Part shown: piece by piece, positions 34,415 to 53,488 of the stretch | Layout: every line of letters begins with the position of its first letter | How positions within the stretch are numbered: the stretch's first letter is position 1 | NCBI GenBank assembly: GCA_964394465.1 | Contig: CAYMXS010000001.1 | Location: 33,484-97,483 of the forward strand | Length of the DNA stretch: 64,000 nt | Direction of reading: 5' to 3' | Source of the DNA: an uncultured Thermoplasmata archaeon | GTDB lineage: Archaea > Thermoplasmatota > Thermoplasmata > Halarchaeoplasmatales > Halarchaeoplasmataceae | The notes under the pieces: model-generated | What the model saw: only the letters and a program-made list of their open reading frames with translations | Database searches by the model: none | Told to the model about the DNA's origin: nothing | Program-made: the position numbers and the translations under genes

Positions 34415-34774
34415 ATGTCTCCAGCAAATTCACTGGAATCTATACTAGAAAAGATAAAAGAGAAATCTGAGATAACCGAGGTAACCTTGGTCTCCAGGAG
34501 CGGTATGCACGTCTCTGGAGATGTTCCTCAAAAGGCGCACAGAGAGACCTTCGTTGCGATGTCGGCCATATTACTGGGTTCTGCTGAAACCGCTACATCG
34601 GAATTGGATGACGAACTCTCCTATGTCTCGGTGAAGTTGAAGGAGAGTATAATATTGATACAGGACGCGGGGCCTTCAGTCCTACTGGTATCCAGACTGG
34701 AGAAAGATGCTGACATCGAAGACGTGTTAGATTATATTAAAGGCTTTATAGAGGATATCCAGGATTCTCTATAA
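34415..34774 (+). CDS. Roadblock/LC7 (MglB-like) domain protein
   Basis: The start was chosen at the internal ATG (MSPANSLES...). The ORF track begins at 34355. The length is ~120 aa, and LESILEKI..EVTLVSRSGMHVSGDV...AMSAILLGSAETA fits the Roadblock fold pattern. Confidence 0.5.
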   Translation: MSPANSLESILEKIKEKSEITEVTLVSRSGMHVSGDVPQKAHRETFVAMSAILLGSAETATSELDDELSYVSVKLKESIILIQDAGPSVLLVSRLEKDADIEDVLDYIKGFIEDIQDSL

Positions 34775-36926: not shown

Positions 36927-39900
36927 ATGAAGCAATCCTCTAAAATTGTATCCCTCACGGTAGTGATGGCCCTAGTACTGCTTCTGGGAGCGGTATCTGG
37001 AGCCCAATGGACTCGATGGAATCAGGATCAACCTCAAGAGAATTCTAAGGAAGTTAATGACACACACCTGATGACGGAGGACGAAGTGGAACAGCTGAAG
37101 AAGAATGTAGGAATGTACCAGCCCGGAGAGAACTATAACGAGATAATCAACGGGCATGGAACTGGCTTAGCACCACCTTCTACAGAGGATTACAAGGAGA
37201 TGGAAGGCTCTGTAAAGGTGGTGGAACACGTGGACTCTAACGAGCCCTTATCCGGTTCGGTCGACTTGACCGAAGACCAGTACTTCCCGCCGATAGGGAA
37301 CCAGGGTTCTCAGGGTTCATGCGCATCCTGGTCTACCGCATATTATGCCAACACGTACATGCAGGCGAAGGCCAACGGATGGGACGTTTCTAGCGGAGGG
37401 GACGATCATTTGATGAGTCCTTCATGGGTCTACAACAAGGTGAACGGTGGGAGCGATGGTGGTTCAACCCTTGCGGACCCGATGGCCCTGGTAGAAACGG
37501 TCGGCAACGCTGATATGCAGACCATGCCCTACGACGATTCAGATCATATCTCTTGGGGAGACGAATCGGCTTGGCGGGACGCTCCGCAGCACAGGGCCCA
37601 AGATTATGAATCTACCAGTGTCAGCAACGTAGATGTGGTCAAGTCTTGGCTCTCAGATGGTTTCGTTGTCAGCATGGCCGTAGATGCGGATCAGTACAAC
37701 TTCGACGGTGACAACGTTCTCTCCTCACAGGAATACAATGCAGGCAGCCCGAATCACGCCAATACCGTCGTGGGATACGATGACAGCGTGAGTGATGACG
37801 GTGAAACCGGGGCCTTCAAGATAGCTAATTCTTGGGGTCAATCATGGGGTCCAAACGGTGATGGAACGTATTACATGACCTATGACTGTTTCCAGACCCT
37901 AGCCTACAGTTCGGCCTATCGTTATACCGGGTCATTGTACAACGGCACTACATATCCTCAGATGATAGGGGCAACGGAGTTGAGTTCCACCGGGCCAAGG
38001 GATGCAGAAGTCGAGCTTGGAGCGGGCGACCCAGACGATCCAAGCGATACTCACTCCCCACAGTGGGACGGCGGCTCCCACGACTTTCCGTCCTTCATGT
38101 GCTTCGACATGACCACTCTAGAAACCGATGATACTTATTCTCAGTACTACCTTCACATAGGCTCCGGTTCCGGCTCCAGCACTATCTCGTCCTTCCAGGT
38201 CGAGGCATACCCCACGGGATACACACCAGGAAACCCGGATAACACATCCGGTGAATCATCTGATACCCCGGCAGATACCCCCGCAACGGTAATTGTTGAC
38301 TTCCAGGGTGGCGGAGGAAACGACCCGCCGGATGCTGCGTTCACTTATTCCCCTGATACACCAGCCGTTGGTGAGACCGTACAGTTCACCGACCAATCCG
38401 AGGACCAGGACGGAGGTACCATAACCGATTGGTCCTGGAGCTTCGGTGACGGTTCCAGCAGTTCTTCTCAGGATCCGACCCATTCCTACAGTTCCGAGGG
38501 TACTTATACGGTAGAACTGAGCGTGACAGATGATGATGGGGCCACCGCCACGGCCTCCCAGACCATAGAAGTCACCAGCGATGGAGATGACGGCGGCGGT
38601 GGTGGTTCCTCTGAGATGGACGAAGATTATGAGGACGGAGCCTCGGGCTGGAGCACGCAAGGTCTCTGGCATCTGGTTTCTGACTCCGACCAGTATGGGG
38701 ACAGTCACAGCGGTTCCAATGCGATGTGGTATGGTAAAGACTCAACCGGAAACTACGATACCGGTTCGCAGACAACTGGTTCTCTGGTTTCGCCTTCGAT
38801 AGATCTAACTCAGGCTTCCCAAGCTCAATTGACCTTCTACCACTGGTACGAGACGGAGAGCTACGACGGTGAGTACGATAAGGTCATGGTTTCAGTCAAT
38901 GGGGACCAGGTTTACTATAGAGACTCGAGTGATCCCAATGTGGGCTCCGAAGGCAACTTCGTGCAGGAAACAGTAGATCTTTCCTCCTACGTAGGTCAGA
39001 CCATATCCGTCAGTTTCACCTTCGATTCCATGGACGGGACCTACAATGACTATCGTGGATGGTATGTCGATGATATAGCCGTGTCTTCAGATGACGGTGG
39101 CGGCGGTGGAGGAAACAACGCCCCAAGCGCTTCCTTCACTTATTCTCCGACCGATCCATCTCCGGGAGATTCGATCCAGTTCACCGATACATCTTCGGAC
39201 GGCGATGGAAGCATAAGTTCCTATTCATGGGACTTCGGTGACGGTTCCACGAGTTCATCTCAGAACCCCACTCACTCCTACGGCTCCGAAGGGACCTACA
39301 CGGTTTCATTGACCGTGACTGACAACGACGGGGCGACCGACACGGCCTCGCAGTCAATAGACGTGAGTTCCGGAGGCGGTGGCGGTTCCACCGTGATTGA
39401 CGATGATTTCGAAAATGGAGCCTCAGGCTGGAGCACTTCAGGTCTGTGGCATCTCGTTTCAGACTCCGACCAGTACGGCGATGCCAACAGCGGTTCCAAG
39501 GCGATGTGGTATGGCCAGGATTCTACTGGTAACTACGCTACGGGGTCCCGTACAACGGGGTCCTTGAGCAAATCTGTGGACCTGAGTGGAACCTCATCAG
39601 CTACCTTGAGCTTCTCTCACTGGTTCGAAACTGAGAATTACGACAATGGCCAGTATGATAAGGTCATAGTTACAGTGAACGGTAATCAGGTCTACTACAG
39701 AGATACGTCGGATTCCAACGTCGGTTCTGAGAACAACTTCGTGCAGGAAACCATAGACATATCATCCTATGCCGGTCAAACGGTGGATATCAAGTTCACC
39801 TTCGACTCCATGGACGACTACGACAACGACTACCGTGGCTGGTATGTGGATGATGTCAAGGTCACAGCGGACTCCGGTGGTGGAGGCGGTGGAAATAGTG

Positions 39901-40799
39901 CGCCTTCAGCATACTTCAGTTACTCCCCGTCGAATCCATCTTCAGGAGAAACGGTTCAGTTCACTGACTCGTCTTCGGACAGTGATGGAAGCATAAGTTC
40001 CTATTCATGGGACTTCGGTGACGGCTCAACGTCCTCACAGCAGGACCCCACACATTCATATGGGTCCGACGGTACCTACACCGTTACCCTAACTGTAACG
40101 GATAATGAAGGGGCTACCAGTTCGACTTCTAAGGATATCACGGTCGGAAGTGGGGGCGGCGGTTCAACCGTACTAGATGAAGACTTCGAAAATGGAGCGT
40201 CCAGCTGGAGCACTTCAGGTCTGTGGCATCTTGTTTCAGACTCCGACCAATATGGCGATGCCAACAGCGGTTCCAAGGCGATGTGGTACGGTCAGGATTC
40301 CACTGGAACTTATGATACCGGTTCACCGACGTCGGGTTCATTGAGTGCTTCCGTTGACCTGAGCGGTGCGTCACAGGCAGAACTTACTTTCCAGCATTGG
40401 TTCAAGACTGAAAGCTATGATGGTCAGTACGATAAGGTCATAGTTACGGTGAACGGAAACCAGGTCTACTACAGAGATACGTCGGATTCCAATGTTGGTT
40501 CCGAGAACAACTTCGTGCAGGAAACGATAGACATCTCATCCTATGCGGGTCAAACGGTGGATATCAAGTTCACCTTCGACTCAGTAGATGACTACAACAA
40601 CGGATACCGCGGCTGGTACGTGGACGATGTCAAGGTCACAACTGGTACCACCTCTCCGACGGCAGTAGAAAGCACTGATGACGGTAGCGCTCCTCTCCTC
40701 AGTATGAGCGAGCAATATACCTCTCTTGATGCCTTGGATCACATGAACGTTGATATCGAGATCGATACGGCAAGCTATTACCGTCGAAAACTCTTCTAA
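36927..40799 (+). CDS. Giant secreted multidomain protein 1: signal peptide, papain-like C1A cysteine protease, then three units of [PKD domain + 150-aa GLWH/RGWYVDD beta-sandwich-type module]
   Basis: 1290 aa. The N-terminal signal/TM is MKQSSKIVSLTVVMALVLLLGAVSGA. C1A catalytic residues are present: QGSQGSCASWSTAYY (Cys), HANTVVGYDD (His) and IANSWGQSWG (Asn). There are three PKD domains (WSFGDGSSSSSQDPTHSYSSEGTYTVELSVTDDDG and others). There are three modules of the form EDFENGASGWSTSGLWHLVSDSDQYGD..MWYGQDSTGNYDTGS..HWFETE.YD..YDKV.VTVNG.QVYYRD.SD.NVGSE.NFVQETIDISSY.GQTV.I.F.FDS.DDY.N.YRGWYVDDV. Confidence 0.85.
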   Translation: MKQSSKIVSLTVVMALVLLLGAVSGAQWTRWNQDQPQENSKEVNDTHLMTEDEVEQLKKNVGMYQPGENYNEIINGHGTGLAPPSTEDYKEMEGSVKVVEHVDSNEPLSGSVDLTEDQYFPPIGNQGSQGSCASWSTAYYANTYMQAKANGWDVSSGGDDHLMSPSWVYNKVNGGSDGGSTLADPMALVETVGNADMQTMPYDDSDHISWGDESAWRDAPQHRAQDYESTSVSNVDVVKSWLSDGFVVSMAVDADQYNFDGDNVLSSQEYNAGSPNHANTVVGYDDSVSDDGETGAFKIANSWGQSWGPNGDGTYYMTYDCFQTLAYSSAYRYTGSLYNGTTYPQMIGATELSSTGPRDAEVELGAGDPDDPSDTHSPQWDGGSHDFPSFMCFDMTTLETDDTYSQYYLHIGSGSGSSTISSFQVEAYPTGYTPGNPDNTSGESSDTPADTPATVIVDFQGGGGNDPPDAAFTYSPDTPAVGETVQFTDQSEDQDGGTITDWSWSFGDGSSSSSQDPTHSYSSEGTYTVELSVTDDDGATATASQTIEVTSDGDDGGGGGSSEMDEDYEDGASGWSTQGLWHLVSDSDQYGDSHSGSNAMWYGKDSTGNYDTGSQTTGSLVSPSIDLTQASQAQLTFYHWYETESYDGEYDKVMVSVNGDQVYYRDSSDPNVGSEGNFVQETVDLSSYVGQTISVSFTFDSMDGTYNDYRGWYVDDIAVSSDDGGGGGGNNAPSASFTYSPTDPSPGDSIQFTDTSSDGDGSISSYSWDFGDGSTSSSQNPTHSYGSEGTYTVSLTVTDNDGATDTASQSIDVSSGGGGGSTVIDDDFENGASGWSTSGLWHLVSDSDQYGDANSGSKAMWYGQDSTGNYATGSRTTGSLSKSVDLSGTSSATLSFSHWFETENYDNGQYDKVIVTVNGNQVYYRDTSDSNVGSENNFVQETIDISSYAGQTVDIKFTFDSMDDYDNDYRGWYVDDVKVTADSGGGGGGNSAPSAYFSYSPSNPSSGETVQFTDSSSDSDGSISSYSWDFGDGSTSSQQDPTHSYGSDGTYTVTLTVTDNEGATSSTSKDITVGSGGGGSTVLDEDFENGASSWSTSGLWHLVSDSDQYGDANSGSKAMWYGQDSTGTYDTGSPTSGSLSASVDLSGASQAELTFQHWFKTESYDGQYDKVIVTVNGNQVYYRDTSDSNVGSENNFVQETIDISSYAGQTVDIKFTFDSVDDYNNGYRGWYVDDVKVTTGTTSPTAVESTDDGSAPLLSMSEQYTSLDALDHMNVDIEIDTASYYRRKLF

Positions 40800-40973
40800 A
40801 AAAACCTTTAACCCTTGTTTTTACTTTTTTTAGTTCCTTAGCCTCCTCCGATTTTTCTCCTAGAATACAACTTCTTAGCGCTGATATTCTACCCTTTTGC
40901 CCCCCCCATATATGGGGGTACGCTTTATATACCATATTCCTTTTTCCATTTTTGTAGATAAAAGGTGTTCTAG

Positions 40974-43900
40974 ATGGAATGGACGAAGAAAAAGTTGATA
41001 ACTTCAAGTTTGATCTTGGCCGCTTTGCTAGTGTTGGGCTCTTTTTCCACTCCCGCACTGGACCTTATAAATGATTCGAACACGGATGATGCTGGGCTAT
41101 CTCAAGGGACGGTCGAGAGTGATGTAGAGACAGAGGAGGACACTAAGAGTGTTCCCTCCAGTTCAGACCTAGACTCTGACGGGTCTACCGCCGAAACTAC
41201 AGATGGATCCAAGTCTAAATCCACCACCAGCGGTGAAAGCGACAAGTTCTGCATAGAGATACACAAGATCGAGGAGTTGGATAATATGGATGCCGTTGGT
41301 TCGGCTGAGTGGTACTACGAACTGAAGGTATCCGACGATGGAGGCTCGACCTGGGAGGTTCGAGAGTCATCAAAACCTTTGGACGACAGTAAAGATACCA
41401 TGATCGTGGATAACGAGCATTTCTTCGACGTGACCAATGACAAGATACTGTTCCGGATGACCCTAAAAGATGAAGATTCCGCTCTAGACGACACCGCGGA
41501 CATATCAGAACGGCCGGACAAGGGCTGGTTCGACGACGACGGGAAAGTTTTCAAGGGCGTCTACTGGATGGAGAACCACACCGTGGGGGGAGACCGAACT
41601 GAAGAGAACGAGATACACTGGTTGAAGACCAGCGGTGAGTGGGATGATAGTGGAGACGATGAGGATACGAATCTGCTGTTCAACGTTTACGAGAAGGGCA
41701 GACCGGACATAAAAAGACCTATCTTTACGGTGCCGAAGATACAGGAGAAGGGGAAGAACATAGAGGTCACTGTCACCTCCAGCGAGGAACCCAATACCTG
41801 GAACGTCGAGCTCTTCACCCCTTCTAGATATCCAACAGATTTGGACATCGAGGATATAACCAAACTGAAAGACGATAGATGGAGATTGGAGTGTGAGATA
41901 CCGGGGTCCATGGAGTCTAGACTTTACGATCTGGTCGTCAGCAATGAGTTCGGATCAGACAGTGAGTACCACGCAGTACAGATAGTGGATGAGATAGACG
42001 ACGAGTTCAACTTCATCCATATGTCGGACTTACACGTGGGATACGATGAGGATTTCTATTCCATACCGAACGTGAAGCAGGCCATCAGAGAAGCTAATCT
42101 GATAAACCCAGACTTCGTTTTCATAACTGGAGATGTATGTGACAAGGTCATGGGATGGTACAAAGACCAGCATCCAGACCCCATAGATCAGGACAGGAGA
42201 ACCCTCCAGTTACTCCAGATGTTTGACGTCCCCATCTACGTGGGCAGCGGCAATCACGACTGGTCCTACGACGGCTATAACGACGAGAGGCAGAATATAG
42301 AGTCCTACAAGAGATGGATCAATCCTTATCTCAACTTCTCGTTCAACTACGGCGATCATCATTTCTCTTACATGGATACCAAAAGCTACGTTGGGTGGTT
42401 GAACCCGGACAGTCCCATGGGGATGGAGGGTATCGATTGGCTCAAGAACGATCTGGAGCAGAACATAGACAAGACCCAGCGTTTCGTTGGGTATCATCAT
42501 CCCGTGTATCCAGACAATTTCGATGACGAGAGTGTTAGGTCTGAATTGGCCCAAACGCTCATAGATTACAACGTATCCATGGCTTTGACCGGACACACCC
42601 ATATAGAGTCCATCCATGATGCCTACGGAAACGAGCAGACCGGAGAGATGGGAAACCCGGCCCAACCGATACATGCTACAGTCTCGGATATAGAGGGGGG
42701 CAACAATTACAGACTAGTAAGGGTCCAGGGAAACGATATAGCCGACTATACCTACGATGAAGATGGAGACGGCGAGAGGCCGGCGAACTCCAGTATACCA
42801 ACAGGTGAATTATCCGTCGAGTACACCCCATCCAACAGTGGTGATAACAGTAAGGTGGTAGCCACGATCGAGAACGGTCTCTACGAGTACTTTGAAGACG
42901 CCTCCATAAGCTTCAAGGTCCCTGACGACGGGAGCGATTACACCGTTGAGAACGGTACGGTAAGGAACATGAAAGATATCGGGGCCTATCTCAGATTCAA
43001 CGTTTTGACCGATGTCCCTGAAGATAACACTAAAAAAGTGACCATCAGACCGTCAAACTACCTGGAAGCTGATTTCACCTGGTCCCCGGACGATCCTACC
43101 GTGCAGGATACGGTCCAATTCGATCACAGCGGGAATAAAAACGATATAAGTTCGTTTTCGTGGGACTTCGGGGACGGTTCGACTTCAACTGAAACTTCGC
43201 CATCACATGGTTATTCATCACCTGGAACGTACACCGTAGAACTGACCGTGGAGGATGCGGACGGCAAAACAGACACATCGACCAAACAGATAACGGTCAG
43301 CCCTGAGGATGAAAACGTAAATAAACTGAACGAGGACTTCGAAGGGGACGTTGACTGGTCAACCAGTGGATTGTGGCATCTAACTACCGAGAACGACCAG
43401 TACGGCGATGCGAACAGCGGTTCCAATGCCATGTGGTACGGTCAGGATTCCACCGGAGATTACGATACAGGTTCACATACCACTGGTTCTCTTGTATCAC
43501 CTACTCTCGATCTTTCTGAAGCTTCCGAAGCGGAATTGACTTTTCAGCACTGGTTCGAGACGGAGAACTGTGACGACGGCCACTGGGATAAGGTCATAGT
43601 GAGAGTGAACGATCAGCAGGTCTATTACAGAGATACCACGGACGACAACATGGGCTCGGAAGATAATTTCGTAAGGGAGACGATAGACATCTCGGAATAC
43701 ACGGGCCAGACCATCGAGATCCAGTTCGTATTCGACTCGGTAGACGATTACGATAATGCCTACAGAGGATGGTACGTAGACGACGTGAAAGTCACAGCGG
43801 ACTCCGGCGGGGATGAGGACGATGACGGCGATGAAGACGATGAAGACTCTGGCTCGGTGGTAATCTCAGAGGTATACTACGACGTAGAAGGTACGGACTC

Positions 43901-44807
43901 AGACGGCGAGTACATCGAGATATACAACCAGGGCTCAGAAGCAGTGGATCTTTCTGGATGGACTATAGGAGACGATACCAGTGCCAACTACACCTTCGAA
44001 GACTCCCTTGCTATACCGGGACACAGTTATCTAACGGTCTGCAGGGACAAGGCTACCTTCGAAGACCGGTACAATAAAAGTCCGGACGCTTGGGACCTAG
44101 CCCTTTCACTGAACAACGGCGGGGATACACTTACACTGTACGATACAAACGGCCAGACAGTAGATAAGGTGGGCTGGGAACAGAACGGTTGGAGCAACCT
44201 TTCAGCCTCTACAGGAGAGGTCATAAGAAGGGAAGATACTTCTGAAGATACGGACACCGTTGAAGACTGGGTCGTGAGTCAACCGGACCCGCAGGTCTTG
44301 AGCGATGGGGAGTCCTCCACTGGAAAACTCTTAAGCGAGGACTTCGAAGGAGAGCATGACTGGTCGACCAGTGGATTGTGGCATAGTGTAACAGAAAACG
44401 ATCAATACGGTGACAGTCACAGCGGTTCTCATTCGATGTGGTACGGTCAGGATTCAAAAGGAAACTACGATACGGGTTCACGCACCAATGGAATTTTGAG
44501 TTCTCCCACGGTAGATCTATCGAGCGTTTCAGACGCTACGCTGAGATTTCGACACTGGTTCAGGACTGAAAGTCACGAAGATAGCTATGACCACTGTGAA
44601 GTGAAGGTGAACGGAGAGCAGGTATACTTCAGAGACACATCAGATGAGAATGTGGGTTCTGAAGACAACTTCGTCAAGGAAACGATCGATATATCGTCAT
44701 ATGCGGGACAAACGGTCCAAATAGAGTTCGTCTTTGATTCGGTAGACGATTATGACAACGGGTATAGAGGCTGGTACATAGACGACGTGGCAGTCACAAC
44801 AGGTTGA
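40974..44807 (+). CDS. Giant secreted multidomain protein 2: signal peptide, calcineurin-like metallophosphoesterase, PKD domain, GLWH module, lamin-tail domain (LTD), GLWH module
   Basis: 1277 aa. The N-terminal signal is MEWTKKKLITSSLILAALLVLGS. The metallophosphoesterase motifs are FIHMSDLHVG, FITGDVCD, GNHDW and GHTHIES. The PKD domain is FSWDFGDGSTSTETSPSHGYSSPGTYTVELTVEDADG. The LTD is VVISEVYYDVEGTDSDGEYIEIYNQGSEAVDLSGWTIGDD...GGDTLTLYDTNGQTVDKVGW. Two C-terminal modules both end in RGWY(V/I)DDV. Confidence 0.85.
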   Translation: MEWTKKKLITSSLILAALLVLGSFSTPALDLINDSNTDDAGLSQGTVESDVETEEDTKSVPSSSDLDSDGSTAETTDGSKSKSTTSGESDKFCIEIHKIEELDNMDAVGSAEWYYELKVSDDGGSTWEVRESSKPLDDSKDTMIVDNEHFFDVTNDKILFRMTLKDEDSALDDTADISERPDKGWFDDDGKVFKGVYWMENHTVGGDRTEENEIHWLKTSGEWDDSGDDEDTNLLFNVYEKGRPDIKRPIFTVPKIQEKGKNIEVTVTSSEEPNTWNVELFTPSRYPTDLDIEDITKLKDDRWRLECEIPGSMESRLYDLVVSNEFGSDSEYHAVQIVDEIDDEFNFIHMSDLHVGYDEDFYSIPNVKQAIREANLINPDFVFITGDVCDKVMGWYKDQHPDPIDQDRRTLQLLQMFDVPIYVGSGNHDWSYDGYNDERQNIESYKRWINPYLNFSFNYGDHHFSYMDTKSYVGWLNPDSPMGMEGIDWLKNDLEQNIDKTQRFVGYHHPVYPDNFDDESVRSELAQTLIDYNVSMALTGHTHIESIHDAYGNEQTGEMGNPAQPIHATVSDIEGGNNYRLVRVQGNDIADYTYDEDGDGERPANSSIPTGELSVEYTPSNSGDNSKVVATIENGLYEYFEDASISFKVPDDGSDYTVENGTVRNMKDIGAYLRFNVLTDVPEDNTKKVTIRPSNYLEADFTWSPDDPTVQDTVQFDHSGNKNDISSFSWDFGDGSTSTETSPSHGYSSPGTYTVELTVEDADGKTDTSTKQITVSPEDENVNKLNEDFEGDVDWSTSGLWHLTTENDQYGDANSGSNAMWYGQDSTGDYDTGSHTTGSLVSPTLDLSEASEAELTFQHWFETENCDDGHWDKVIVRVNDQQVYYRDTTDDNMGSEDNFVRETIDISEYTGQTIEIQFVFDSVDDYDNAYRGWYVDDVKVTADSGGDEDDDGDEDDEDSGSVVISEVYYDVEGTDSDGEYIEIYNQGSEAVDLSGWTIGDDTSANYTFEDSLAIPGHSYLTVCRDKATFEDRYNKSPDAWDLALSLNNGGDTLTLYDTNGQTVDKVGWEQNGWSNLSASTGEVIRREDTSEDTDTVEDWVVSQPDPQVLSDGESSTGKLLSEDFEGEHDWSTSGLWHSVTENDQYGDSHSGSHSMWYGQDSKGNYDTGSRTNGILSSPTVDLSSVSDATLRFRHWFRTESHEDSYDHCEVKVNGEQVYFRDTSDENVGSEDNFVKETIDISSYAGQTVQIEFVFDSVDDYDNGYRGWYIDDVAVTTG

Positions 44808-44953
44808 ATCAAAATCAAAAAATTCTTTCTATCTTTTCCATCTAATATGCCCCTCTAGAAGCGCATATATGCGGCTGAGCGTTATATATCTACCAATACT
44901 TTTTTACCCCGATAAGAACCGAGGATACCCCCTCCTCGGAGAAGGGATCAACC

Positions 44954-47900
44954 ATGAAAAGAAACAACCTCAAGATTTTTGCGCTCGTGGCCGTTCTATC
45001 CATATTTGTTTCAACGGCGAGCATAGCCTTCACCCCATTGGGAAGTAGTCCGTGGCTTGCCGATGAAGAGGAAGGTGAGGAGTACATAGGGGCGATCATA
45101 CCCTCTAATTACCTCATAGGTAACACTTCTTCCGATTCGGTGGAGTATGGCTTCGAACTGTTCGTCGGTTACAAAGAGAATGAATCCTTGGAAGAATTAA
45201 AGGTGTTCGAACTGAAGGATGCCGAGGATATCGGTTCGGTCATAGGTGGGAAGTTCAGGATAAGCTACGATGGACAGAAACACGTCCTAGAAGAGACGAT
45301 AAACGACAGTTTTGAGGAGGTCATCGAAAGCGAGATGGACGAGGTCATAGACGACCTGTTCAAGAACATAGAGGTAGAGTTCAAATCCGCCAGCCTGACC
45401 ATCGAAGATAACACCTACGGGATAGGCTGTACCGATGAGGAGGACTTCATGTGGATAATGCCCAACGAGTCTTATCCGTCTTTCTTCAACAAGGTGAGGG
45501 TGAAAGGAACAGTTCTAGACGAAGACGCCCTCGAGTCGATAATAGAGAATTTCTCTGCCTTTACCGAAGATTTCATCGATCCCAGTCTTGTTACTGAGGT
45601 GAGCGAGGATCTAGAGATGAATTATACGGGCCTGTTGACCAACTTCATCTTTGTCTCCGACTTTCAATACTTGGGGGATAGAAACGTCGTCGGCGATGTA
45701 GTCGATACGATCACTCCAAGGGACATAGATATAGACGTGCACAAGTCCTCCTCCGCTGAGGGAATAAAAGCGCTGGGAAACGGCTCCTGCGATGCGGCCA
45801 TGACCACCAGAAAAGTGACCCAGGAAGAAGAAGACCTCTATCCAGACTGTGATTTTAACTCCTATCTTATAGCTAGAGACGCTGTTTCTTTGATAGTGGA
45901 TGAAAGAGTTTACGAGGAAGGGGTATCGGACCTAGATAAAGAGGAGATACACGATATATACACCGACGAGATAGACAACTGGAAGTACCTGGGAGGTCCG
46001 AACGAGCCGATACACACGATCGGAAGGACAGAGAGCTGCGATGCACAAAGTACATTTCAACAGTTCATAGGGGAGGGATCGACCTCGGCTGATAATCACG
46101 TAAAGGAAGGCGAAAAGGTGATAGACGAGGTCAAAGATGTTTCAGGGAACGAGTACAGCATAGGTTACGTCAGCACCGGTTACCTAGATGATGATATAAG
46201 ATCACTGAGCGTTCACGGGGTCAAACCGGACAAGACGGCCATCAATACCGAGCAGTACCCCATGACTAGGGAACTTTATGTTTATACCGACGGCGAACCC
46301 ATGGGGTTAGAAAAAGAACTCATAGATATCCTACTAAGCAGAGAAGGTCAGGATGTAGTTGAACAGGAAGGCTTCATCAACGTTACAGAAGGAAACTACA
46401 ACGGTCTAGAGAAGAGTGTAAGCGGTAGACTATCCGTTAAGGGCTCCATGGTGACTGATAAGGTGGTGAATAAACTTTCAGATAGACTCCTGGAGAACAA
46501 CCCTGAAAACGAGAACGTCTCCGACGGTTTTCTCACTTCCGGCACCTCTTGGGTACAAGATACAGGTAGGAGGTCCAACACTGGTATAGCCGTCGTAGCG
46601 TCAAAGGATAACACTTGGAGCGATAACGAGTTCTGGTTCGTGTTCTACGACCAGGGGAGATTTAGAGGTTTCCCGGGCATCTGTGAGATGAACGTCTCCA
46701 GGATGCACTACGAAACGCTGTTCAGGGAGGTCAGTTTCTTGGATGAGGACGACTTCGACCTGGGCATAGATATGAACGTGGAAGTGAACCTCGGCATATT
46801 GAAGAGGATGGAAACCACGGATTATGAAGAGACGACCTTACCTGAGATGTGGTCTCTGCTAGAAGACAACGACCAGTACAGCCAGGTGAAGAACGTAGAG
46901 ACCACTACGTATTCCGCCGTTTTGGACCTTCAGACCGCTTCTAACGTCCTATCAGACCTCTTCGGCATGGACAGCGATGTCACCGAGGATATAGGTGATC
47001 TGACTTCGGATAAGAATCCAGCTATAGCATTGATGCTGGACGGGACCGCCCCCTCTGAATATGAAGAAAACGATGAGTCCATCTGGGACTATACTGGCTT
47101 CGCCATCATCCCGCATTATAGAGAAGGAGATTCCCACTTCAACTATCTAGATATCGAAGGAGTTCTCTACGACCCGGTCACTTACTTCGAACTCGACTCC
47201 TGTGATCATAACGTACCATTGATCATCGCCGACGGATATCACGAGTCTAACGAGGTCAACACGGAGGTCCAATTCAGCTCGGCCAGCGTCGTCGTAGGTA
47301 GAGATACGTACGGCGTTGGATTTACCGATGAAACCAATTATCTCTGGACTGCCCAGGGAGAAGCACTTCCCACTGTCCTCAACGACGTTACCGCTCGAGG
47401 AGTCATCATGCCCACCGATGTTATCGTGGCGATGCTTGAAGAAGTGACCGGTAATATATTCGAGGGCTTCGGCCTTTCAGACCTGGAAACCTACTCGGAC
47501 AATTACAGCGTCAACATATACGGACCGGAGACCAAGTTCCTCTTCGTCTCGGATATAGAGCACGAACCGGACAGGGTGATAGAAGGCGACGTCTTAGACA
47601 CGATAACTCCGGAGGATCTAGATCCGCTCACCTCCAACTACACGACCGAGGGCACGCAATGGCTCCAGAACATGGCCGATAGAAGTGATACGGGACTTGC
47701 CATACTGACCGAGGAGGACAGCAGCATAGAACACAACAAGATATGGTTCCTGCTTTACGATGTCAGGAGATACGACCATTTCCCGGGTAAATGCCAGATG
47801 AAGGTTTCCGTTTCCCATCTGCCAACTCTGCTTGCCAGGAACATAAATCTGGACGATGATTCCTTCGACTTCGGCATGGATATAGACTTCGAGGTCAATC

Positions 47901-50900
47901 TAGGCATCATAGTTGGTGCTAGAGGTCGGCGTTACCAAAGAGAAAGCGTACATGATCTCTGGTCTCTGATCGAAGATGACCATCATCACTCACAGCTGAA
48001 GAACGTAGAGGTCAACAGCTACTGTTTCGTCGTGGACCTGGATACGGTAACGGACTTCGTGGGAGATATGTTGAACATAAGTGACGGTACGGCAAGAAAA
48101 CTAGAGACCATGACTACCCTCAAGAATCCCGCCTTCGTATTCATGCTGGATTCCGATACGCCGGAACAGATAGACGATGAGAACGTTTGGCACTACACCG
48201 GGATCGGTATAATACCGGACTACGAGAAAGAACAGGCAGGCTTCAGATACTTAAGGCTGAGAGGTGTCCTCCACGACCCGGTTCAATACTTAAACCTCAG
48301 CTCTTATATGGACAACATACCATTACTGCTCGTAGACAGTTACAGGGAATCGGATCATAACAACGCGGTGGAAGAGTTCACATCCTGCAGCCTGGTCTTC
48401 GACGAAGATACGTACGGCATGGGCTGGTCGAACGACGATCACTATCTCTGGATGGCCCAGAACGAGAGCTATCCCACCGTTTTCAACGATGTGAGGGCCG
48501 AAGGCGTTCTGTTCCCGACGAACCTTTTAGTCTCTCTGGCCCAAAATGTGAGCGAGCAGGTCTTCGGTGTGATAGACAGTGACAAGACGGAGAACATATC
48601 CTCAGAGTATGGTATAGAGACGAACTACACGAAGATACTCTTCGTTGACCATCTGGATTACATTGGTAACACGGAAGTACAGGGCGACGTGATAGATACC
48701 ATCACCCCGGAAGACATGCATGATCTGGCATCTGAGTTCAGGACCCCTGGTATAGACTGGATGAAGGACATGGTCGAAGAACTCGGCATAGGTCTTGCGA
48801 TATTTTCAGAGAAGGACAACAGCATAAGCGATACGGACCTCTGGTTCATCCTATACGATTCTGAAGAGTACGAAGATTTCGAGGGTATATGCAACCTGAG
48901 CGTTTCGGTTTCCAGCCTGACCTACCTGATAGAGAACGTGACCGATCTGGGAGACGATGCCTTCGACTTCGATCTGAATATATCGTTCTCCGTCAACATC
49001 GGCATCTTGACGGAACTGGAGAACGACGACTACATGCAGAGTTCGGTGACCGGCCTGTGGGATAGGTTGGACCAACCCCATACATACATGCAGGTGGACT
49101 CGGTCAGCGCAAAGGCGTACAGTCTTGTAGTAGACCTAGACAGCGTGATAGACGGTCTCGTGGACATATTCGAGATGGATAGAGGAACGGCCAGCACTAT
49201 CGACAGCATAACCACGTTCAAGAATCCAGCCTTCGCATTCTTGTTCGACGAGAGATCGGGAGAGATGTTCAACGGGAGCGGAACGGCATTCTGGAAGTAC
49301 GGAGCTATAGGCATAATCCCGGATTACGGGGTGGGTGAATCCAATACAAGAGTCCTGCGAGTAGAGGGCGTCCTGTACGACCCTGTCAAGTATTTCGACG
49401 AAGATGCGGATGAATGGAACGTTCCTTTGGTCGTTGTTGACAGCTATCACGAGGCTGAGAAAGATATACAGGACGTCTCCGTCAAGGAAGTTGTCCAGGA
49501 AGACCTAGATATGAACGAGATAGGTAACTTCGGGTGGGCTCACGTGCAGATAGACGCGGTCACTACGGGCTTATCACTCCAGAAACTGATCGAGCTGATA
49601 CCGACTGGAGATCCGACTACAGGACTTATCCAGAAGATAATCTGTGACTTCCCGCTCAAGATAGGGGTCTACGACGGGATGCAGATGGAGGCCATCAATC
49701 AGAGCTATCACGTGCCCATAGTTTATCCGACCATAGGGGAGGCACCCACACACTTCAGCCTGAACATAACCAGAGTGGAAGGTATCTACGTGAGTTTCAA
49801 CGGAACGATGCTGGACAGGGTCAAGGATCATCTAGTAGACAACATAATGCAGCAGCTTGCCGCCATAAATGAGGAACTGGAGGACATATTACCTTCCTAC
49901 ATAGAGGAAAAGCTGTACGAATACGTGGACCTGATATTCGACTCGATACATGTGGCTCCTGGTTTCCTATTTGCTTACTCCATGGAGGACATAGACAACG
50001 AGCCCGCTGAGTTGGAGTTCATGAGCCCTCAGCAGGATGAGGAAGTTGAACCTCAAGACTTCAATATAACCTTCAGCACCACTGACAGTCCGGACGTAGT
50101 GGCCTGGGTGACCCTGAACGTGACCAAGTTCTCCGACTCGGGCGATATAACCGTGAACAACATCCCGATACCGGTCTTCAGAGACGGCATATGGTCTACG
50201 GGAGACACGTGGTGGTGGGGATACGTACAGGATTATATAATCGAGCCATACGGTACAGGTGATTATGAAGTAACGATAAAGGCACATGACTTCCAGGGTT
50301 ATTCCTACTCCATAATAAGGGAGTTCCAGATAGTGGACGATGCACCGGATCCCATCCCTCCAGAATCACACGTAGATCCGTTGCCGGAATATAATCGAAA
50401 CATGTCCTTCGATGTGAGCGCCACGGCATCCGATGATGAAGGAGTTGATGCCGTATCTTTATACTACAGGCACAACGGAGGTGAATGGAAGCACTACGAT
50501 ACGGACGACTGGGGCTTCAACGGCTGGGACTGGTCGTTCAATACCTATTATAGAGGCGATGGGGAGTACCAGTTCTATACCAGGGCCATAGACGACTCCG
50601 GCAACTACGAAGAGATACCGAACGGGAGCGACGAAGTGACCAAGGTGGATTACTATGCACCAGAAACGGAGGCGACTGGACCAGAAAACGTGAACGGATT
50701 CTCCTTCGACCTGAGCTATGAGGTCCAAGATAAGACTTACTCATCCGGCCTTGAATCCGTCACTCTTTACTATACCAGGAACGGAGGCTGGACATGGGAA
50801 GAATACGGAGAGGACACGGATTGCAGCAGTCCTATGACCGTCACGGTAAACGAAGAAGGCACCTACGGCTGGCAGTTCGTCGCGGAAGATAGAGCTGGCA

Positions 50901-53488
50901 ACATTGAATCCTTTGCAGGAGGCGTGGAGCAGGAGACCGAAGTCGAGGCCTCTGAAGAGACCATACTAGAGGAAGATTTCGAAGGTTCTTCCGACTGGTC
51001 TACTAGTGGTTTATGGCATAAAGTTGAAGAGTCCGACCAGTACGGTGACAGCAACAGTCAAACTCATTCGATGTGGTACGGTCAGGATTCCACAGGCAAC
51101 TACGATACCGGTTCTCAAACGACCGGCGCTTTGAGCAAGACCGTCGATCTGAGCGGCGCCACACAGGCCGAGCTGATCTTCCACCACTGGTATGAGACGG
51201 AGAGCTATGATGACGGAAGCTACGACCGACTCAAAGTCACTGTAGACGGACAGGAGGTCTATTACAGAGACAGTTCTTACGATAACGTCGGTTCTGAAAA
51301 TGATTACGTGAAGGAAGGGATAGATATATCCGATCATACTGGTCAAGAGGTAGAGATAAGATTCGTTTTCGACTCTCTAGACGGCTACAACAACGGCTAC
51401 AGAGGCTGGTATATAGACGACGTTAAGGTGACAGCTGATTCCAGCGGTGGGGATAACAGTGCTCCTTCGGCCGGTTTCAGTTTTGCCCCTACCGATCCAA
51501 CAACGGGAGAGACTGTCCAGTTCACTGAAACATCGGAGGATGCCGACGGCACCATAGCTTCTTACTCATGGGACTTCGGTGACGGGTCGAGTTCTACGGA
51601 AGCTAGTCCATCGCACACTTTCTCCTTGTCTGGCACTTACACGATAGGATTGACCGTCACAGATAACGATGGAGCAGAGGACTCCACCAGTGAAGAAATA
51701 ACCGTACAATCCGACAATGATGGGGACACCACTACTCAGCTAGATGAAGATTTTGAAGACGGTGCTTCAGACTGGTCCACCAGCGGATTGTGGCACCTTG
51801 TTTCCGAAAGCGACGAGTACGGAGACAGCAGCAGTCAAACTCACTCGATGTGGTATGGTCAGGACTCTACAGGTGATTACGATACCGGTTCTCGAACGAC
51901 CGGCCAACTCACTTCTCCCAGCATCGACCTGACCCAAGCTTCACAGGCGGAACTGACCTTCCAGCACTGGTTCGATACGGAGAACTACGACGGAGGTAAT
52001 TATGACAAGGTAAAGGTAACGGTGAACGGAGACCAGGTCTACTACAGAGACACCTCAGATGATAATGTTGGCTCCGAGAACAATTTCGTCAACGAGACCA
52101 TAGACCTTTCCTCTTATGTCGGTCAAACCATACAGTTGAAGTTCATATTCGATTCCGTGGACAAATACACTAACGATTATCGGGGCTGGTATGTAGATGA
52201 TATAAGAGTTAACACTGAAAGTGGCGAAAACTCCGCACCTACGGCTGATTTTGATTACTCACCTGACCAACCTGAAAAAGGACAGACGGTTCAATTCACA
52301 TCCACCTCTTCAGATGAAGACGGCACAATCGCTTCCTACAGCTGGGACTTCGGAGACGGGAGTGTATCAGACGAACAGGATCCAACGTACAGTTATTCCT
52401 CTACGGGTACTTACGACGTCTCCTTGACCGTGACCGATGAAGACGGTGATTCGGATTCTATCACGAAGACGATAGTTATAAGCAGCGAAGAGGAAGGCAT
52501 GGACACGGTATTCAAGGAGGACTTCGAAGGTTCATATGACTGGTCTACAAGCGGGTTATGGCATCCTGTTTCCGAAAGCGACGAGTACGGAGACAGTAAC
52601 AGTCAAACTCACTCGATGTGGTACGGACAGGACTCTACAGGCGATTACGATACCGGTTCACATACGACCGGCCAACTCACTTCTCCCAGCATCGACCTGA
52701 CCCAAGCTTCACAGGCGGAACTGACCTTTCAACACTGGTTCGAGACCGAGAACCACGACGGTGGATACGACAAGGTCAAAGTCTTGGTTAACGGAGAGCA
52801 GGTCTACTACAAGGATACCTCGGATGAAAACGTCGGCTCAGAGAACGAATTCGTGAAGGAGACCATAGACCTTTCATCCTTCGTAGGCCAGACGATACAG
52901 GTGACCTTCGAGTTCGACTCCATAGATGATTATGAGAACGGTTACAGGGGTTGGTACGTGGACGATGTAGAAGTGAAAGCAGAAAGCAGTGACGAAGGCC
53001 AGGAGATATACTCCCAGTCCTTCGAGACATCCGAGGGCTGGAGTTCCTCCGGTTTATGGCACCCCGTCTCTGAGGAAGACCAGTATGGGGACAGCAAAAG
53101 CGGTTCTAATTCGATGTGGTACGGTCAGGATTCCACAGGCAACTACGACACTGGCTCTAGGACCACGGGGGATCTCACATTGAACTCCGTCGATCTGACC
53201 GGTGTTGACAACGCGGAGTTAAGTTTTGCCCACTGGTTCGAGACGGAGAACCACGAAGGAGAATATGACCTGTGTAAGGTCAAGGTGAACGGAGAGCAGG
53301 TCTACTACAAGGATGCATCAGATGAGAACGTGGGTTCTGAGGGCAATTTTGTCACTGAGAACATAGACATATCCGATTATGCTGGACAGACCGTGGACAT
53401 AGAGTTCACCTTCGATTCCGTCGACGATTACGATAACGCGTATCAGGGCTGGTACATAGACGATGTGGCCATAACTTCGGAACAGTGA
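44954..53488 (+). CDS. Giant secreted multidomain protein 3 (2844 aa): signal peptide, about four copies of a novel ~330-aa repeat (the first with an inserted PstS-like/PBP_like_2 substrate-binding-type domain), Ig-like beta-sandwich domains, then four GLWH modules with two PKD domains
   Basis: The N-terminal signal is MKRNNLKIFALVAVLSIFVSTASIAF. Repeat markers are TYG(I/V/M)G(C/F/W)(T/S)D...(W/M)...ESYP(S/T)(F/V)(F/L)N.V...G..., about four times. The PBP-like insert spans nt 45704-46514: IKALGNGSCDAAMTTR..LIARDAVSLIVDE..EEIHDIYTDEIDNWKYLGGPNEPIHTIGRTE..EYSIGYVSTGYLDD..YPMTRELYVYTDGEP.GLEKELIDILLSREGQDVVEQEGFI, which is the PstS/PBP_like_2 pattern. Two Ig-like repeats are present (VSLYYRHNGGEW...YQFYTRAIDDSGNYE). 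The four modules end in RGWYIDDV, RGWYVDDI, RGWYVDDV and QGWYIDDV. Two PKD domains contain WDFGDGS. Confidence 0.85.
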   Translation: MKRNNLKIFALVAVLSIFVSTASIAFTPLGSSPWLADEEEGEEYIGAIIPSNYLIGNTSSDSVEYGFELFVGYKENESLEELKVFELKDAEDIGSVIGGKFRISYDGQKHVLEETINDSFEEVIESEMDEVIDDLFKNIEVEFKSASLTIEDNTYGIGCTDEEDFMWIMPNESYPSFFNKVRVKGTVLDEDALESIIENFSAFTEDFIDPSLVTEVSEDLEMNYTGLLTNFIFVSDFQYLGDRNVVGDVVDTITPRDIDIDVHKSSSAEGIKALGNGSCDAAMTTRKVTQEEEDLYPDCDFNSYLIARDAVSLIVDERVYEEGVSDLDKEEIHDIYTDEIDNWKYLGGPNEPIHTIGRTESCDAQSTFQQFIGEGSTSADNHVKEGEKVIDEVKDVSGNEYSIGYVSTGYLDDDIRSLSVHGVKPDKTAINTEQYPMTRELYVYTDGEPMGLEKELIDILLSREGQDVVEQEGFINVTEGNYNGLEKSVSGRLSVKGSMVTDKVVNKLSDRLLENNPENENVSDGFLTSGTSWVQDTGRRSNTGIAVVASKDNTWSDNEFWFVFYDQGRFRGFPGICEMNVSRMHYETLFREVSFLDEDDFDLGIDMNVEVNLGILKRMETTDYEETTLPEMWSLLEDNDQYSQVKNVETTTYSAVLDLQTASNVLSDLFGMDSDVTEDIGDLTSDKNPAIALMLDGTAPSEYEENDESIWDYTGFAIIPHYREGDSHFNYLDIEGVLYDPVTYFELDSCDHNVPLIIADGYHESNEVNTEVQFSSASVVVGRDTYGVGFTDETNYLWTAQGEALPTVLNDVTARGVIMPTDVIVAMLEEVTGNIFEGFGLSDLETYSDNYSVNIYGPETKFLFVSDIEHEPDRVIEGDVLDTITPEDLDPLTSNYTTEGTQWLQNMADRSDTGLAILTEEDSSIEHNKIWFLLYDVRRYDHFPGKCQMKVSVSHLPTLLARNINLDDDSFDFGMDIDFEVNLGIIVGARGRRYQRESVHDLWSLIEDDHHHSQLKNVEVNSYCFVVDLDTVTDFVGDMLNISDGTARKLETMTTLKNPAFVFMLDSDTPEQIDDENVWHYTGIGIIPDYEKEQAGFRYLRLRGVLHDPVQYLNLSSYMDNIPLLLVDSYRESDHNNAVEEFTSCSLVFDEDTYGMGWSNDDHYLWMAQNESYPTVFNDVRAEGVLFPTNLLVSLAQNVSEQVFGVIDSDKTENISSEYGIETNYTKILFVDHLDYIGNTEVQGDVIDTITPEDMHDLASEFRTPGIDWMKDMVEELGIGLAIFSEKDNSISDTDLWFILYDSEEYEDFEGICNLSVSVSSLTYLIENVTDLGDDAFDFDLNISFSVNIGILTELENDDYMQSSVTGLWDRLDQPHTYMQVDSVSAKAYSLVVDLDSVIDGLVDIFEMDRGTASTIDSITTFKNPAFAFLFDERSGEMFNGSGTAFWKYGAIGIIPDYGVGESNTRVLRVEGVLYDPVKYFDEDADEWNVPLVVVDSYHEAEKDIQDVSVKEVVQEDLDMNEIGNFGWAHVQIDAVTTGLSLQKLIELIPTGDPTTGLIQKIICDFPLKIGVYDGMQMEAINQSYHVPIVYPTIGEAPTHFSLNITRVEGIYVSFNGTMLDRVKDHLVDNIMQQLAAINEELEDILPSYIEEKLYEYVDLIFDSIHVAPGFLFAYSMEDIDNEPAELEFMSPQQDEEVEPQDFNITFSTTDSPDVVAWVTLNVTKFSDSGDITVNNIPIPVFRDGIWSTGDTWWWGYVQDYIIEPYGTGDYEVTIKAHDFQGYSYSIIREFQIVDDAPDPIPPESHVDPLPEYNRNMSFDVSATASDDEGVDAVSLYYRHNGGEWKHYDTDDWGFNGWDWSFNTYYRGDGEYQFYTRAIDDSGNYEEIPNGSDEVTKVDYYAPETEATGPENVNGFSFDLSYEVQDKTYSSGLESVTLYYTRNGGWTWEEYGEDTDCSSPMTVTVNEEGTYGWQFVAEDRAGNIESFAGGVEQETEVEASEETILEEDFEGSSDWSTSGLWHKVEESDQYGDSNSQTHSMWYGQDSTGNYDTGSQTTGALSKTVDLSGATQAELIFHHWYETESYDDGSYDRLKVTVDGQEVYYRDSSYDNVGSENDYVKEGIDISDHTGQEVEIRFVFDSLDGYNNGYRGWYIDDVKVTADSSGGDNSAPSAGFSFAPTDPTTGETVQFTETSEDADGTIASYSWDFGDGSSSTEASPSHTFSLSGTYTIGLTVTDNDGAEDSTSEEITVQSDNDGDTTTQLDEDFEDGASDWSTSGLWHLVSESDEYGDSSSQTHSMWYGQDSTGDYDTGSRTTGQLTSPSIDLTQASQAELTFQHWFDTENYDGGNYDKVKVTVNGDQVYYRDTSDDNVGSENNFVNETIDLSSYVGQTIQLKFIFDSVDKYTNDYRGWYVDDIRVNTESGENSAPTADFDYSPDQPEKGQTVQFTSTSSDEDGTIASYSWDFGDGSVSDEQDPTYSYSSTGTYDVSLTVTDEDGDSDSITKTIVISSEEEGMDTVFKEDFEGSYDWSTSGLWHPVSESDEYGDSNSQTHSMWYGQDSTGDYDTGSHTTGQLTSPSIDLTQASQAELTFQHWFETENHDGGYDKVKVLVNGEQVYYKDTSDENVGSENEFVKETIDLSSFVGQTIQVTFEFDSIDDYENGYRGWYVDDVEVKAESSDEGQEIYSQSFETSEGWSSSGLWHPVSEEDQYGDSKSGSNSMWYGQDSTGNYDTGSRTTGDLTLNSVDLTGVDNAELSFAHWFETENHEGEYDLCKVKVNGEQVYYKDASDENVGSEGNFVTENIDISDYAGQTVDIEFTFDSVDDYDNAYQGWYIDDVAITSEQ

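Follow-up and report, generated by a model that had tools for sequence, protein, structure and literature searches.

Three tandem giant genes of an uncultured Thermoplasmata archaeon join different heads to a shared stalk of InhA-like MAM and PKD domains

The stretch of DNA considered here, called the window throughout, comprises 64,000 nucleotides (nt) of contig CAYMXS010000001.1 (GenBank assembly GCA_964394465.1) from an uncultured Thermoplasmata archaeon, and the subject of this report is a tandem trio of giant genes within it whose products are probably secreted. Three same-strand giant genes had been described in the original prediction, which was made from the letters of the sequence alone, and the open reading frames do lie exactly where it had placed them, all on the forward strand: gene 1 at 36927-40799 (1290 residues), gene 2 at 40974-44807 (1277 residues) and gene 3 at 44954-53488 (2844 residues), which together make up 25.9% of the window. 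When read from the N-terminus, the gene 1 product consists of a signal-like segment, a C1A papain-type peptidase head, a regular PKD-module-PKD-module-PKD-module series and a non-hydrophobic tail of 50 residues, where "module" stands for one repeated domain common to all three proteins. The gene 2 product starts with a signal-like segment, an acidic linker and unassigned N-terminal domains, followed by a metallophosphoesterase domain, a PKD domain, a module, a lamin-tail domain (LTD) and a second module. The gene 3 product, by far the longest, has a signal-like N-terminus, a partial copy of an orphan repeat, an inserted domain resembling periplasmic binding proteins (PBPs), three full orphan repeats of about 370 residues, two Ig-like domains and a C-terminal module-PKD-module-PKD-module-module series.

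The claim that nine copies of one module are spread over the trio is well founded, since nine are recovered (three, two and four in genes 1, 2 and 3, respectively), far beyond chance, each bounded by GLWH...[RQ]GWY[VI]DD in a motif search. In gene 1 the modules occupy 38610-39092, 39390-39872 and 40167-40646, in gene 2 they occupy 43317-43802 and 44322-44804, the latter ending the protein, and in gene 3 they occupy 50957-51439, 51734-52219, 52502-52984 and 53000-53482, all on the forward strand. Once aligned, the copies measure 160-162 residues each, share 60-88% protein identity and are invariant in 63 of 161 columns, and a local hidden Markov model (HMM) built from all nine finds no further module elsewhere in the window. 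The module had also been called cysteine-free, which is true of six copies; the other three have one cysteine each, at no conserved position. The trio contains six PKD domains as well (three, one and two per gene), defined by W[DS]FGDG motifs and by Pfam, with PKD families PF18911 and PF00801 above threshold and PKD_4 reaching 216, 66.5 and 129 bits in proteins 1, 2 and 3. Those of gene 1 lie at 38328-38582, ~39123-39371 and ~39894-40136, with their motifs at residues 504, 768 and 1028, and those of gene 3 at ~51455-51700 and ~52226-52477. At the DNA level the modules form repeat families of 61-90% identity with a period of ~780 nt, which corresponds to a super-unit of one module plus one PKD domain.

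As to what the module is, the MAM-like character that had been suggested is confirmed by its assignment to Pfam family PF20773, the MAM domain of immune inhibitor A-like proteins (InhA-like_MAM), a beta-sandwich; the cysteines of MAM domains are absent. Against a gathering threshold of 26.9 bits, proteins 1-3 score 94.9, 55.9 and 112.2 bits and an isolated module still reaches 35.3 bits. A profile made from the nine copies and three homologs matches the crystal structure of InhA2 (4yu5, E 6e-4), and the AlphaFold2 model of one module (the second copy of gene 1; pLDDT 92.9, pTM 0.90) is a ten-stranded beta-sandwich that can be superposed on the MAM-like domain of InhA2. When this model was used for a fold search, the matches fell within the jelly-roll group of carbohydrate-binding modules (CBM) and MAM domains, with scores of 14.2 for a Reelin subrepeat, 13.7 for CBM61, 13.6 for the "cleaved adhesin" of Gingipain K1, 12.4-13.4 for the MAM domains of RPTP kappa/mu, neuropilin and enteropeptidase, and 12.0 for InhA2. 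Two other candidate assignments were rejected. Canonical MAM (PF00629) gives no match at E<=0.01, nor at E<=1 for the isolated module, with its zero to one cysteine per copy; choice-of-anchor J and other NCBIfam surface-domain models likewise give no match at E<=0.01.

The module is thus a catalogued and very common extracellular domain. An exhaustive profile search of 1.84 billion cluster representatives returned 17,076 module proteins at E<=1e-3, many of which hold 2-14 copies; at E<=1e-30 the number was 928. The mere three hits of a word-indexed search with a single module under-represent the family. Within the Archaea, a genome scan places the module in Thermoplasmata, Methanofastidiosa, Methanomassiliicoccales, many Asgard lineages and DPANN, and within the Bacteria in Planctomycetota, Chloroflexota, Verrucomicrobiota and others, with the nearest copies outside this organism in other Thermoplasmata metagenome-assembled genomes (MAGs) at 58-73% identity. 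In 36 sampled strong hits the partner domains were mostly He_PIG, PKD, reelin-B, FG-GAP, fn3 and the tail of the type IX secretion system (T9SS), and occasionally enzymes such as S8 peptidases, while the source names of module proteins include "bacillopeptidase F (M6 family)" and "S8 family serine peptidase". A small homolog from Promethearchaeota (P0001, 280 residues) consists of a signal segment, one module, a poly-Asp linker, a C-terminal transmembrane helix and a KKKSRR tail; together with P0005, described below, it suggests that the module is also borne by proteins anchored at the cell surface. Each module copy in the locus is under strong purifying selection: the ratio of nonsynonymous to synonymous change (dN/dS) is 0.07-0.12 for the two closest module pairs, and 34 of the 36 pairs come close to saturation at synonymous sites. 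The copies are therefore old and individually constrained, and not recent padding.

The head of gene 1 had been read as an intact papain-like C1A protease, and it does look catalytically intact. The Peptidase_C1 domain lies at residues ~110-330 (37254-37916, forward strand), PF00112 matches residues 111-311 with 52.8 bits (cut-off 20.7, E 7.5e-14), and the head aligns to cathepsins K, L and V, with Gln126 (oxyanion), Cys132, His277 and Asn301 falling on the catalytic positions of cathepsin K. The same four residues are kept in the paralog P0006 and in a Thermoplasmata homolog, with ~70% identity over the domain. The C1 domain is separated from the signal segment by ~80 residues of unassigned sequence. 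The public annotation of this gene starts at Met49 (37071) and gives a product of 1242 residues, from which the signal-like segment is lost, and an exact look-up of the 1290-residue product found no match; the start at 36927 is preferred, because GAGGAG stands 8 nt upstream of it and the resulting N-terminus aligns with P0006 from residue 1. The result is therefore useful for annotation, given that the public record truncates the signal peptide.

Gene 2 encodes a calcineurin-like metallophosphoesterase domain at residues 346-544 (42009-42605, forward strand), which had been predicted to be intact and accompanied by a lamin-tail domain; both parts of that prediction were upheld. PF00149 (Metallophos) reaches 53.8 bits (cut-off 21.5), and all five motifs that bind metal in this family (DxH, GDxxD, GNH[DE], H and GHxH) can be recognized, as DLH352, GDVCD386, GNHD426, HH507-508 and GHTH540. 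The lamin-tail domain is placed between the two modules at residues 958-1069 (43845-44180, forward strand), where PF00932 scores 85.1 bits against a cut-off of 34.3 and covers model positions 4-108 of 109. A full-length ortholog of gene 2 (P0010) is 69% identical. Pairing of an LTD with a calcineurin-like phosphoesterase is listed as typical (PMC6085458, citing Mans et al. 2004), and an LTD also occurs in the extracellular nuclease ExeM of Shewanella (PMC6085458). For the N-terminal 340 residues of gene 2 and the N-terminal 260 residues of gene 3, Pfam offers nothing beyond the sub-threshold hits DUF7474 and PG_binding_4, which were not used for assignment.

For gene 3, the PstS-like binding domain of the original prediction stands as far as the fold is concerned and falls short as a PstS. 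A type-II PBP-like domain is present at residues 256-476 (45719-46381, forward strand; PF12849, PBP_like_2, 80.2 bits against 27) and is homologous to PstS structures over ~220 residues (E 1e-26), being nevertheless truncated at its N-terminus, altered in its anion loop and below the PstS cut-off. Specifically, the alignment to PDB 4q8r begins at chain residue 30, the first ~29 residues of PstS being absent; the REDGSGT of 4q8r aligns with RTESCDA, so that Cys-Asp-Ala replaces Ser-Gly-Thr; and the NCBIfam PstS model TIGR02136 scores 139.7 bits against a curated cut-off of 206.6, over model positions 65-294 of 295. In E. coli PstS, phosphate is held by Thr10/Phe11, Ser38, Asp56, Arg135 and Ser139-Gly140-Thr141. 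The gap and the replacement in gene 3 presumably correspond to two of the phosphate-binding loops, namely the N-terminal Ser/Thr loop and the Arg-x3-Ser-Gly-Thr loop, and since these are missing or replaced, canonical phosphate binding by the domain is unlikely. The role in capturing phosphate-like ligands that had been proposed for gene 3 is weakened on all three counts, and a "PstS" label would mislead annotation.

The PBP-like domain sits between a partial copy of the orphan repeat (45041-45739) and the first of three full tandem copies (46502-47620, 47621-48739 and 48740-49873), all on the forward strand and 31-41% identical to each other. Repeats of 330 residues had been reported here; their existence is confirmed and their length corrected to ~366-379 residues (DNA period 1098-1110 nt), and they make up ~40% of gene 3. 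They were recovered with windowed queries against self-masked gene 3, while a self-BLAST of the whole gene gave the identity hit only. The orphan repeat has no Pfam hit, none of the 2,501 homolog candidates from a word-indexed search was significant, and the AlphaFold2 model from a four-row alignment (pLDDT 35.9) is unusable. The Ig-like domains that had been noted in gene 3 are also found, as two Big_7-type domains at residues 1811-1899 and 1910-1998 (50384-50947, forward strand), identified by their internal similarity and a marginal Big_7 match.

Export of all three proteins, without a C-terminal anchor, had been predicted, and their sequences agree with it. Here, a signal peptide is defined by a hydropathy pattern together with the (-3,-1) rule. 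Each protein has one hydrophobic stretch at residues ~5-28 with a core of ~20 residues, preceded by a basic n-region (MKQSSK, MEWTKKK and MKRNNLK in proteins 1, 2 and 3) and followed by a small-x-small site (VSGA before Q, STPA before L and ASIA before F, in the same order). No further window of 19 residues exceeds a mean Kyte-Doolittle hydropathy of 1.6 in proteins 1-3, hence the conclusion that there is no C-terminal anchor. Other routes were considered and discarded: there is no twin-Arg motif as in Tat signals, no Cys lipobox, and no other transmembrane-like window that could belong to an anchor of the PGF-CTERM type. Proteins 1-3 are accordingly best described as putatively secreted.

The trio does not stand by itself, since its paralogous family occupies at least four loci of the genome. 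Database protein P0004, encoded on contig CAJOVN010000002.1 (assembly GCA_905333785.1), has exactly the sequence of the gene 3 product, and in this MAG no fewer than eight genes, distributed over four loci, contain the module, at least five of them in three loci outside the trio; the local HMM counted 19 modules in seven scanned genes, the loci of P0009 and P0011 being left out. P0006 (contig CAJOVN010000061.1, locus L081, 1830 residues) combines a C1 head that is 57% identical to that of gene 1 with GH25, Big_7, Amidase_6, SH3_3, four PKD domains and two modules, and is flanked on contig 61 by a PKD protein of 1870 residues and by a giant C25 (gingipain-family) protein without modules. Also beside the P0006 cluster is a small GTPase of the Ras/Arf/Roc type (L081, 752-1558). 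Contig 5 (locus L083) encodes P0005 (993-5648), with three modules, two PKD domains and a C-terminal transmembrane helix; P0007, with Amidase_6, PPC, PKD and two modules; and a protein of 2086 residues with PKD, GEVED, three modules and an LTD. Finally, P0009 on contig 56 (locus L088) has a module, a PKD domain and a C92 amidase of the NlpC/P60-like kind. The suggestion to look for the module on other heads in related archaea was likewise rewarded, as other Thermoplasmata MAGs encode relatives that unite S8, PKD, C1, GEVED and module domains. Archaea lack murein. Given that GH25, Amidase_6 and SH3_3 act on this polymer, at least part of the family would be directed at the bacterial cell wall. 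Archaea have been shown to secrete peptidoglycan hydrolases that kill bacteria, and such enzymes are noted as frequent in Thermoplasmatota (PMC12352652).

A related MAG (GCA_905333415.1 and run ERR5414701; loci L086 and L087, compared with window positions 40550-45400) keeps the order gene 1-gene 2-gene 3, but identity ranges from 54% in the tail of gene 1 through 69% in gene 2 to 93% in the N-terminus of gene 3, and P0006 is 100% identical in GCA_905333415.1. Such uneven divergence points to recombination, to fast evolution of genes 1 and 2, or to a mixed bin.

Putative regulatory signals can be recognized around the genes. Each of the three is preceded by its own TATA-like box and Shine-Dalgarno-like sequence and followed, past the stop codon, by a T-rich stretch, and separate transcription is therefore likely. 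A perfect 16-bp palindrome, CCCCCATATATGGGGG, lies at 40903-40918, 9 nt upstream of the TATA-like box of gene 2 (TTTATATA, 40924-40931), and a 12-bp palindrome, CGCATATATGCG, lies at 44862-44873, 10 nt upstream of that of gene 3 (TTATATAT, 44882-44889). Within the 64-kb window their common octamer, CATATATG, is confined to these two sites, where it forms the core of the GC-clamped palindrome (sCATATATGs); 36 kb of other loci of the same MAG contain only two more copies, at the same position before P0005 and P0007 (L083, ~918-929 and ~5753-5762). In ~100 kb, all four copies are thus found no more than 100 nt upstream of a family gene, in a zone that amounts to ~0.8% of the sequence, for which a rough chance estimate is ~4e-9. 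The gene 2 palindrome is also kept in the orthologous promoter of the related MAG (L087, ~347-362), although the intergenic region is otherwise 66% identical, and that of gene 3 is identical in the ortholog locus (L086, ~3916-3927). Gene 1 has only a one-mismatch version nearer its start, and no palindrome was found before P0006, P0009 or P0011. Going by this distribution, some of the family genes may share one regulator, although the AT core might also serve as another TATA-like element.

Taken together, two apparently intact enzyme heads and export-type N-termini make an extracellular degradative role, as originally proposed, the best reading, and with moderate confidence we regard the trio as part of a lineage-expanded family of exported hydrolases in which variable heads are carried on a shared binding or spacer stalk for the breakdown of extracellular polymers. 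According to this model, each protein would probably cross the membrane through the Sec pathway by means of its N-terminal signal peptide and would consist of a variable N-terminal head and a shared C-terminal stalk, in which PF20773 modules alternate with Ig-like PKD domains. The gene 1 head would act as a papain-type (C1A) cysteine endopeptidase and that of gene 2 as a binuclear-metal phosphoesterase, most plausibly a phosphodiesterase or nuclease active on extracellular nucleic acids or other phosphoesters, while for the PBP-fold domain and the orphan repeats of gene 3 binding is more likely than catalysis. The modules would probably hold the enzymes on polymeric substrates or on a cell surface, with the PKD domains serving as spacers, and the system would break down and scavenge extracellular protein, phosphoesters and, via the paralogs elsewhere in the genome, the bacterial cell wall. 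The analysis shows which domains are present, that catalytic residues are conserved, that the N-termini are of the export type and anchors are lacking, that each module copy is under purifying selection, and how the family is distributed; secretion, enzymatic activity, substrates and the binding role of the module are inferred. An extracellular role of this kind agrees with the extracellular C1A, C25, S8 and M9B peptidases, some of them with PKD domains, that Thermoplasmatota are reported to express (PMC6461988).

Several points weigh against this reading. In gene 1, no Inhibitor_I29 propeptide is found in residues 1-470 at E<=1 and the residue that follows the catalytic Cys is Ala, where Trp is usual, so that its activity and activation are unproven. 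For gene 2, a phmmer search of the phosphoesterase region against the PDB gives nothing at E<=0.01, and Mre11 and LpxH appear only as non-significant matches (E 0.02-0.08 in a search at E<=5). Gene 3 has no recognizable catalytic domain and consists to ~40% of orphan repeat. The fold matches of the modelled module are compatible with glycan binding, protein binding, oligomerization and a purely structural role; the N-terminal segments could be uncleaved signal anchors; and the housekeeping neighbours of the trio offer no hint on its function.

Of the alternatives, the one to which we give the most room, unlikely as it is on balance, overlaps with an exported degradative family and differs from it in target and purpose: the trio would belong to an antibacterial arsenal or feeding apparatus, in which modules and PKD domains dock the enzymes on bacterial envelopes and the gene 1 protease works jointly with the gene 2 phosphoesterase (acting, for instance, on teichoic acids, extracellular DNA or lipid head groups) and with the paralogs that hydrolyse peptidoglycan. 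That P0006 joins a close relative of the gene 1 head to GH25, Amidase_6 and SH3_3, that P0007 and P0009 carry amidases, and that such paralogs, in organisms without murein of their own, must act on bacterial walls all speak in its favour, as do the bacteria-killing hydrolases documented for archaea and noted as frequent in the phylum (PMC12352652) and the palindrome that genes 2 and 3 have in common with P0005 and P0007, a hint that they are regulated together with a member bearing an amidase. However, Pfam searches detect no peptidoglycan-directed domain in genes 1-3, neither immunity nor delivery genes occur among the surveyed flanking open reading frames, the palindrome is absent before P0006 and P0009, and wall-degrading domains serve the scavenging of necromass as well as killing. 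A bolder and improbable version would make the trio part of a co-regulated regulon that comprises no fewer than eight giant exported hydrolases and is marked by sCATATATGs as an operator, placed 9-10 nt before the TATA box. These hydrolases would form a bacteriolytic secretome digesting prey or necromass, with the stalk targeting bacterial envelopes and the orphan repeats representing a new target-recognizing fold.

In another explanation, itself rather improbable, the three proteins would be adhesins of the cell surface or parts of the envelope, kept in place by an N-terminal anchor that is not cleaved off and used for attachment to particles, partners or a biofilm matrix, their heads being secondary or inactive. 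The hydrophobic regions of ~20 residues are long enough to span a membrane, P0005 and P0001 have C-terminal transmembrane anchors, most sampled members of the wider family carry Ig-like or adhesin-type repeats without an enzyme, the module fold resembles the gingipain adhesin and MAM adhesion domains, and the gene 1 tail and gene 2 diverge fast (54% and 69%, against 93% for the N-terminus of gene 3), as surface proteins often do. On the other hand, both enzyme heads retain intact catalytic residues that are shared by paralogs and orthologs, all three proteins have plausible -3/-1 cleavage sites, and the variety of hydrolase heads in the family would be left unexplained. Least probable is a phosphate-scavenging pair, in which the phosphate that gene 2 frees from organic esters would be captured for uptake by the PstS-like domain in gene 3. 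It has in its favour that the phosphoesterase adjoins a domain like those of the PstS family, that this adjacency is kept in the related MAG and that genes 2 and 3 share the upstream palindrome; yet the latter also stands before an amidase gene, the PBP domain lacks the first phosphate-binding loop, has Cys-Asp-Ala for Ser-Gly-Thr and scores below the NCBIfam cut-off for PstS, it is embedded in a protein of 2844 residues that has no lipid anchor, and the surveyed flanking open reading frames include neither pstCAB nor phoU.

Comparison with known systems helps to define what is particular to the trio. In InhA/M6 metallopeptidases, such as Bacillus anthracis InhA2 (PDB 4YU5/4YU6), one copy of the domain is C-terminal to an M6 metalloprotease, whereas the proteins of the trio have two to four copies that alternate with PKD domains, and their heads are C1A, metallophosphoesterase or non-enzymatic. 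To our knowledge, the role of the MAM-like domain in InhA is not established. Canonical MAM domains (PF00629; meprin, RPTP mu/kappa, neuropilin, enteropeptidase) form a eukaryotic family involved in homophilic adhesion and oligomerization, from which the modules differ in having neither a PF00629 hit nor conserved cysteines. The gingipains Kgp and RgpA of Porphyromonas gingivalis join a protease to repeated cleaved-adhesin beta-sandwich domains; their protease is C25, however, while that of gene 1 is C1A, and the trio has no T9SS C-terminal domain and no cleaved-adhesin Pfam hit. The PBP-like domain of gene 3 is homologous to PstS (PDB 4Q8R, 4GD5) and departs from it, apart from the missing residues and the changed SGT loop, in the lack of a lipobox and in its location inside a giant protein. 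Closer in phylogeny, sedimentary Thermoplasmatota (MBG-D/Thermoprofundales; PMC6461988), of the same phylum, have signal-peptide-bearing C1A and C25 cysteine peptidases on multi-domain scaffolds, which have been read as agents of detrital protein degradation; that work is a metabolic survey, and describes no MAM-like/PKD stalk, paralog expansion, halophilic lineage, or phosphoesterase or PBP-like members. As for archaeal peptidoglycan hydrolases (Strock et al., PLoS Biol 2025, PMC12352652), P0006 fits the class and shares its C1 head and stalk with gene 1, whereas peptidoglycan-cleaving domains are present only in P0006, P0007 and P0009, and not in genes 1-3. Lastly, ExeM of Shewanella (PMC6085458) resembles gene 2 in combining an LTD with an exported phosphoester-cleaving enzyme, although its catalytic domain is of the EEP type with OB folds, and that of gene 2 is calcineurin-like, with the LTD between two MAM-like modules.

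The idea that the trio represents an undescribed system therefore has to be given up: the module is PF20773, with tens of thousands of members, and hydrolase heads on PKD/beta-sandwich stalks are familiar (PMC6461988). The original prediction had itself named a known and widespread module as the result that would tell against novelty, and this is largely what was found. By analogy, with gingipains and InhA/M6 proteases as close counterparts, the trio would follow a known architecture of secreted enzymes. What deserves notice is the size of the family and the diversity of its heads in one small archaeal genome, the link with peptidoglycan hydrolases, the candidate operator and the orphan repeat. 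The locus thus illustrates how one uncultured halophilic Thermoplasmata lineage may build its extracellular enzymes, with one constrained InhA-like MAM/PKD stalk and many hydrolase heads, and extends the view that Thermoplasmatota degrade detrital polymers. If a co-regulated bacteriolytic secretome were indeed present, the finding would matter more, since direct attack of archaea on bacteria is only beginning to be documented. Moreover, the module is abundant and functionally uncharacterized, and defining its ligand would annotate a very large set of proteins.

Regarding the organism and the genomic setting, the FtsZ encoded in the window shares 77-84% identity with FtsZ of Thermoplasmata MAGs and 80% with that of Candidatus Saliniplasma, a member of the order Candidatus Halarchaeoplasmatales, which is a halophilic and probably salt-in lineage (PMC11332174). 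The strongly acidic composition of proteins 1-3 (15.7-21.5% Asp+Glu; net charges of -164, -189 and -435) fits such a salt-in halophile (PMC11332174). The trio is surrounded by housekeeping genes: upstream are MatE, roadblock/LC7, amidohydrolase and GcvH genes, with Orc1/Cdc6 further up, and downstream are PurL/PurS, DUF58, Alba, FtsZ, SecE and Spt5; no gene for secretion, sorting, immunity or transport adjoins the trio among the surveyed flanking open reading frames. The roadblock/LC7-domain protein is encoded at 34355-34774. About 10 kb upstream of the trio, a tRNA-Glu(CTC) (24154-24230), an archaeal RNase P RNA (24802-25142, reverse strand, 189 bits) and the Orc1/Cdc6 gene (26778-27947, reverse strand) form a cluster, near which a replication origin may be located. 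The Orc1/Cdc6 gene is adjoined by an open reading frame of 329 residues (27958-28947, reverse strand) whose match to bactofilin stays below threshold (26.0 bits, cut-off 27.9).

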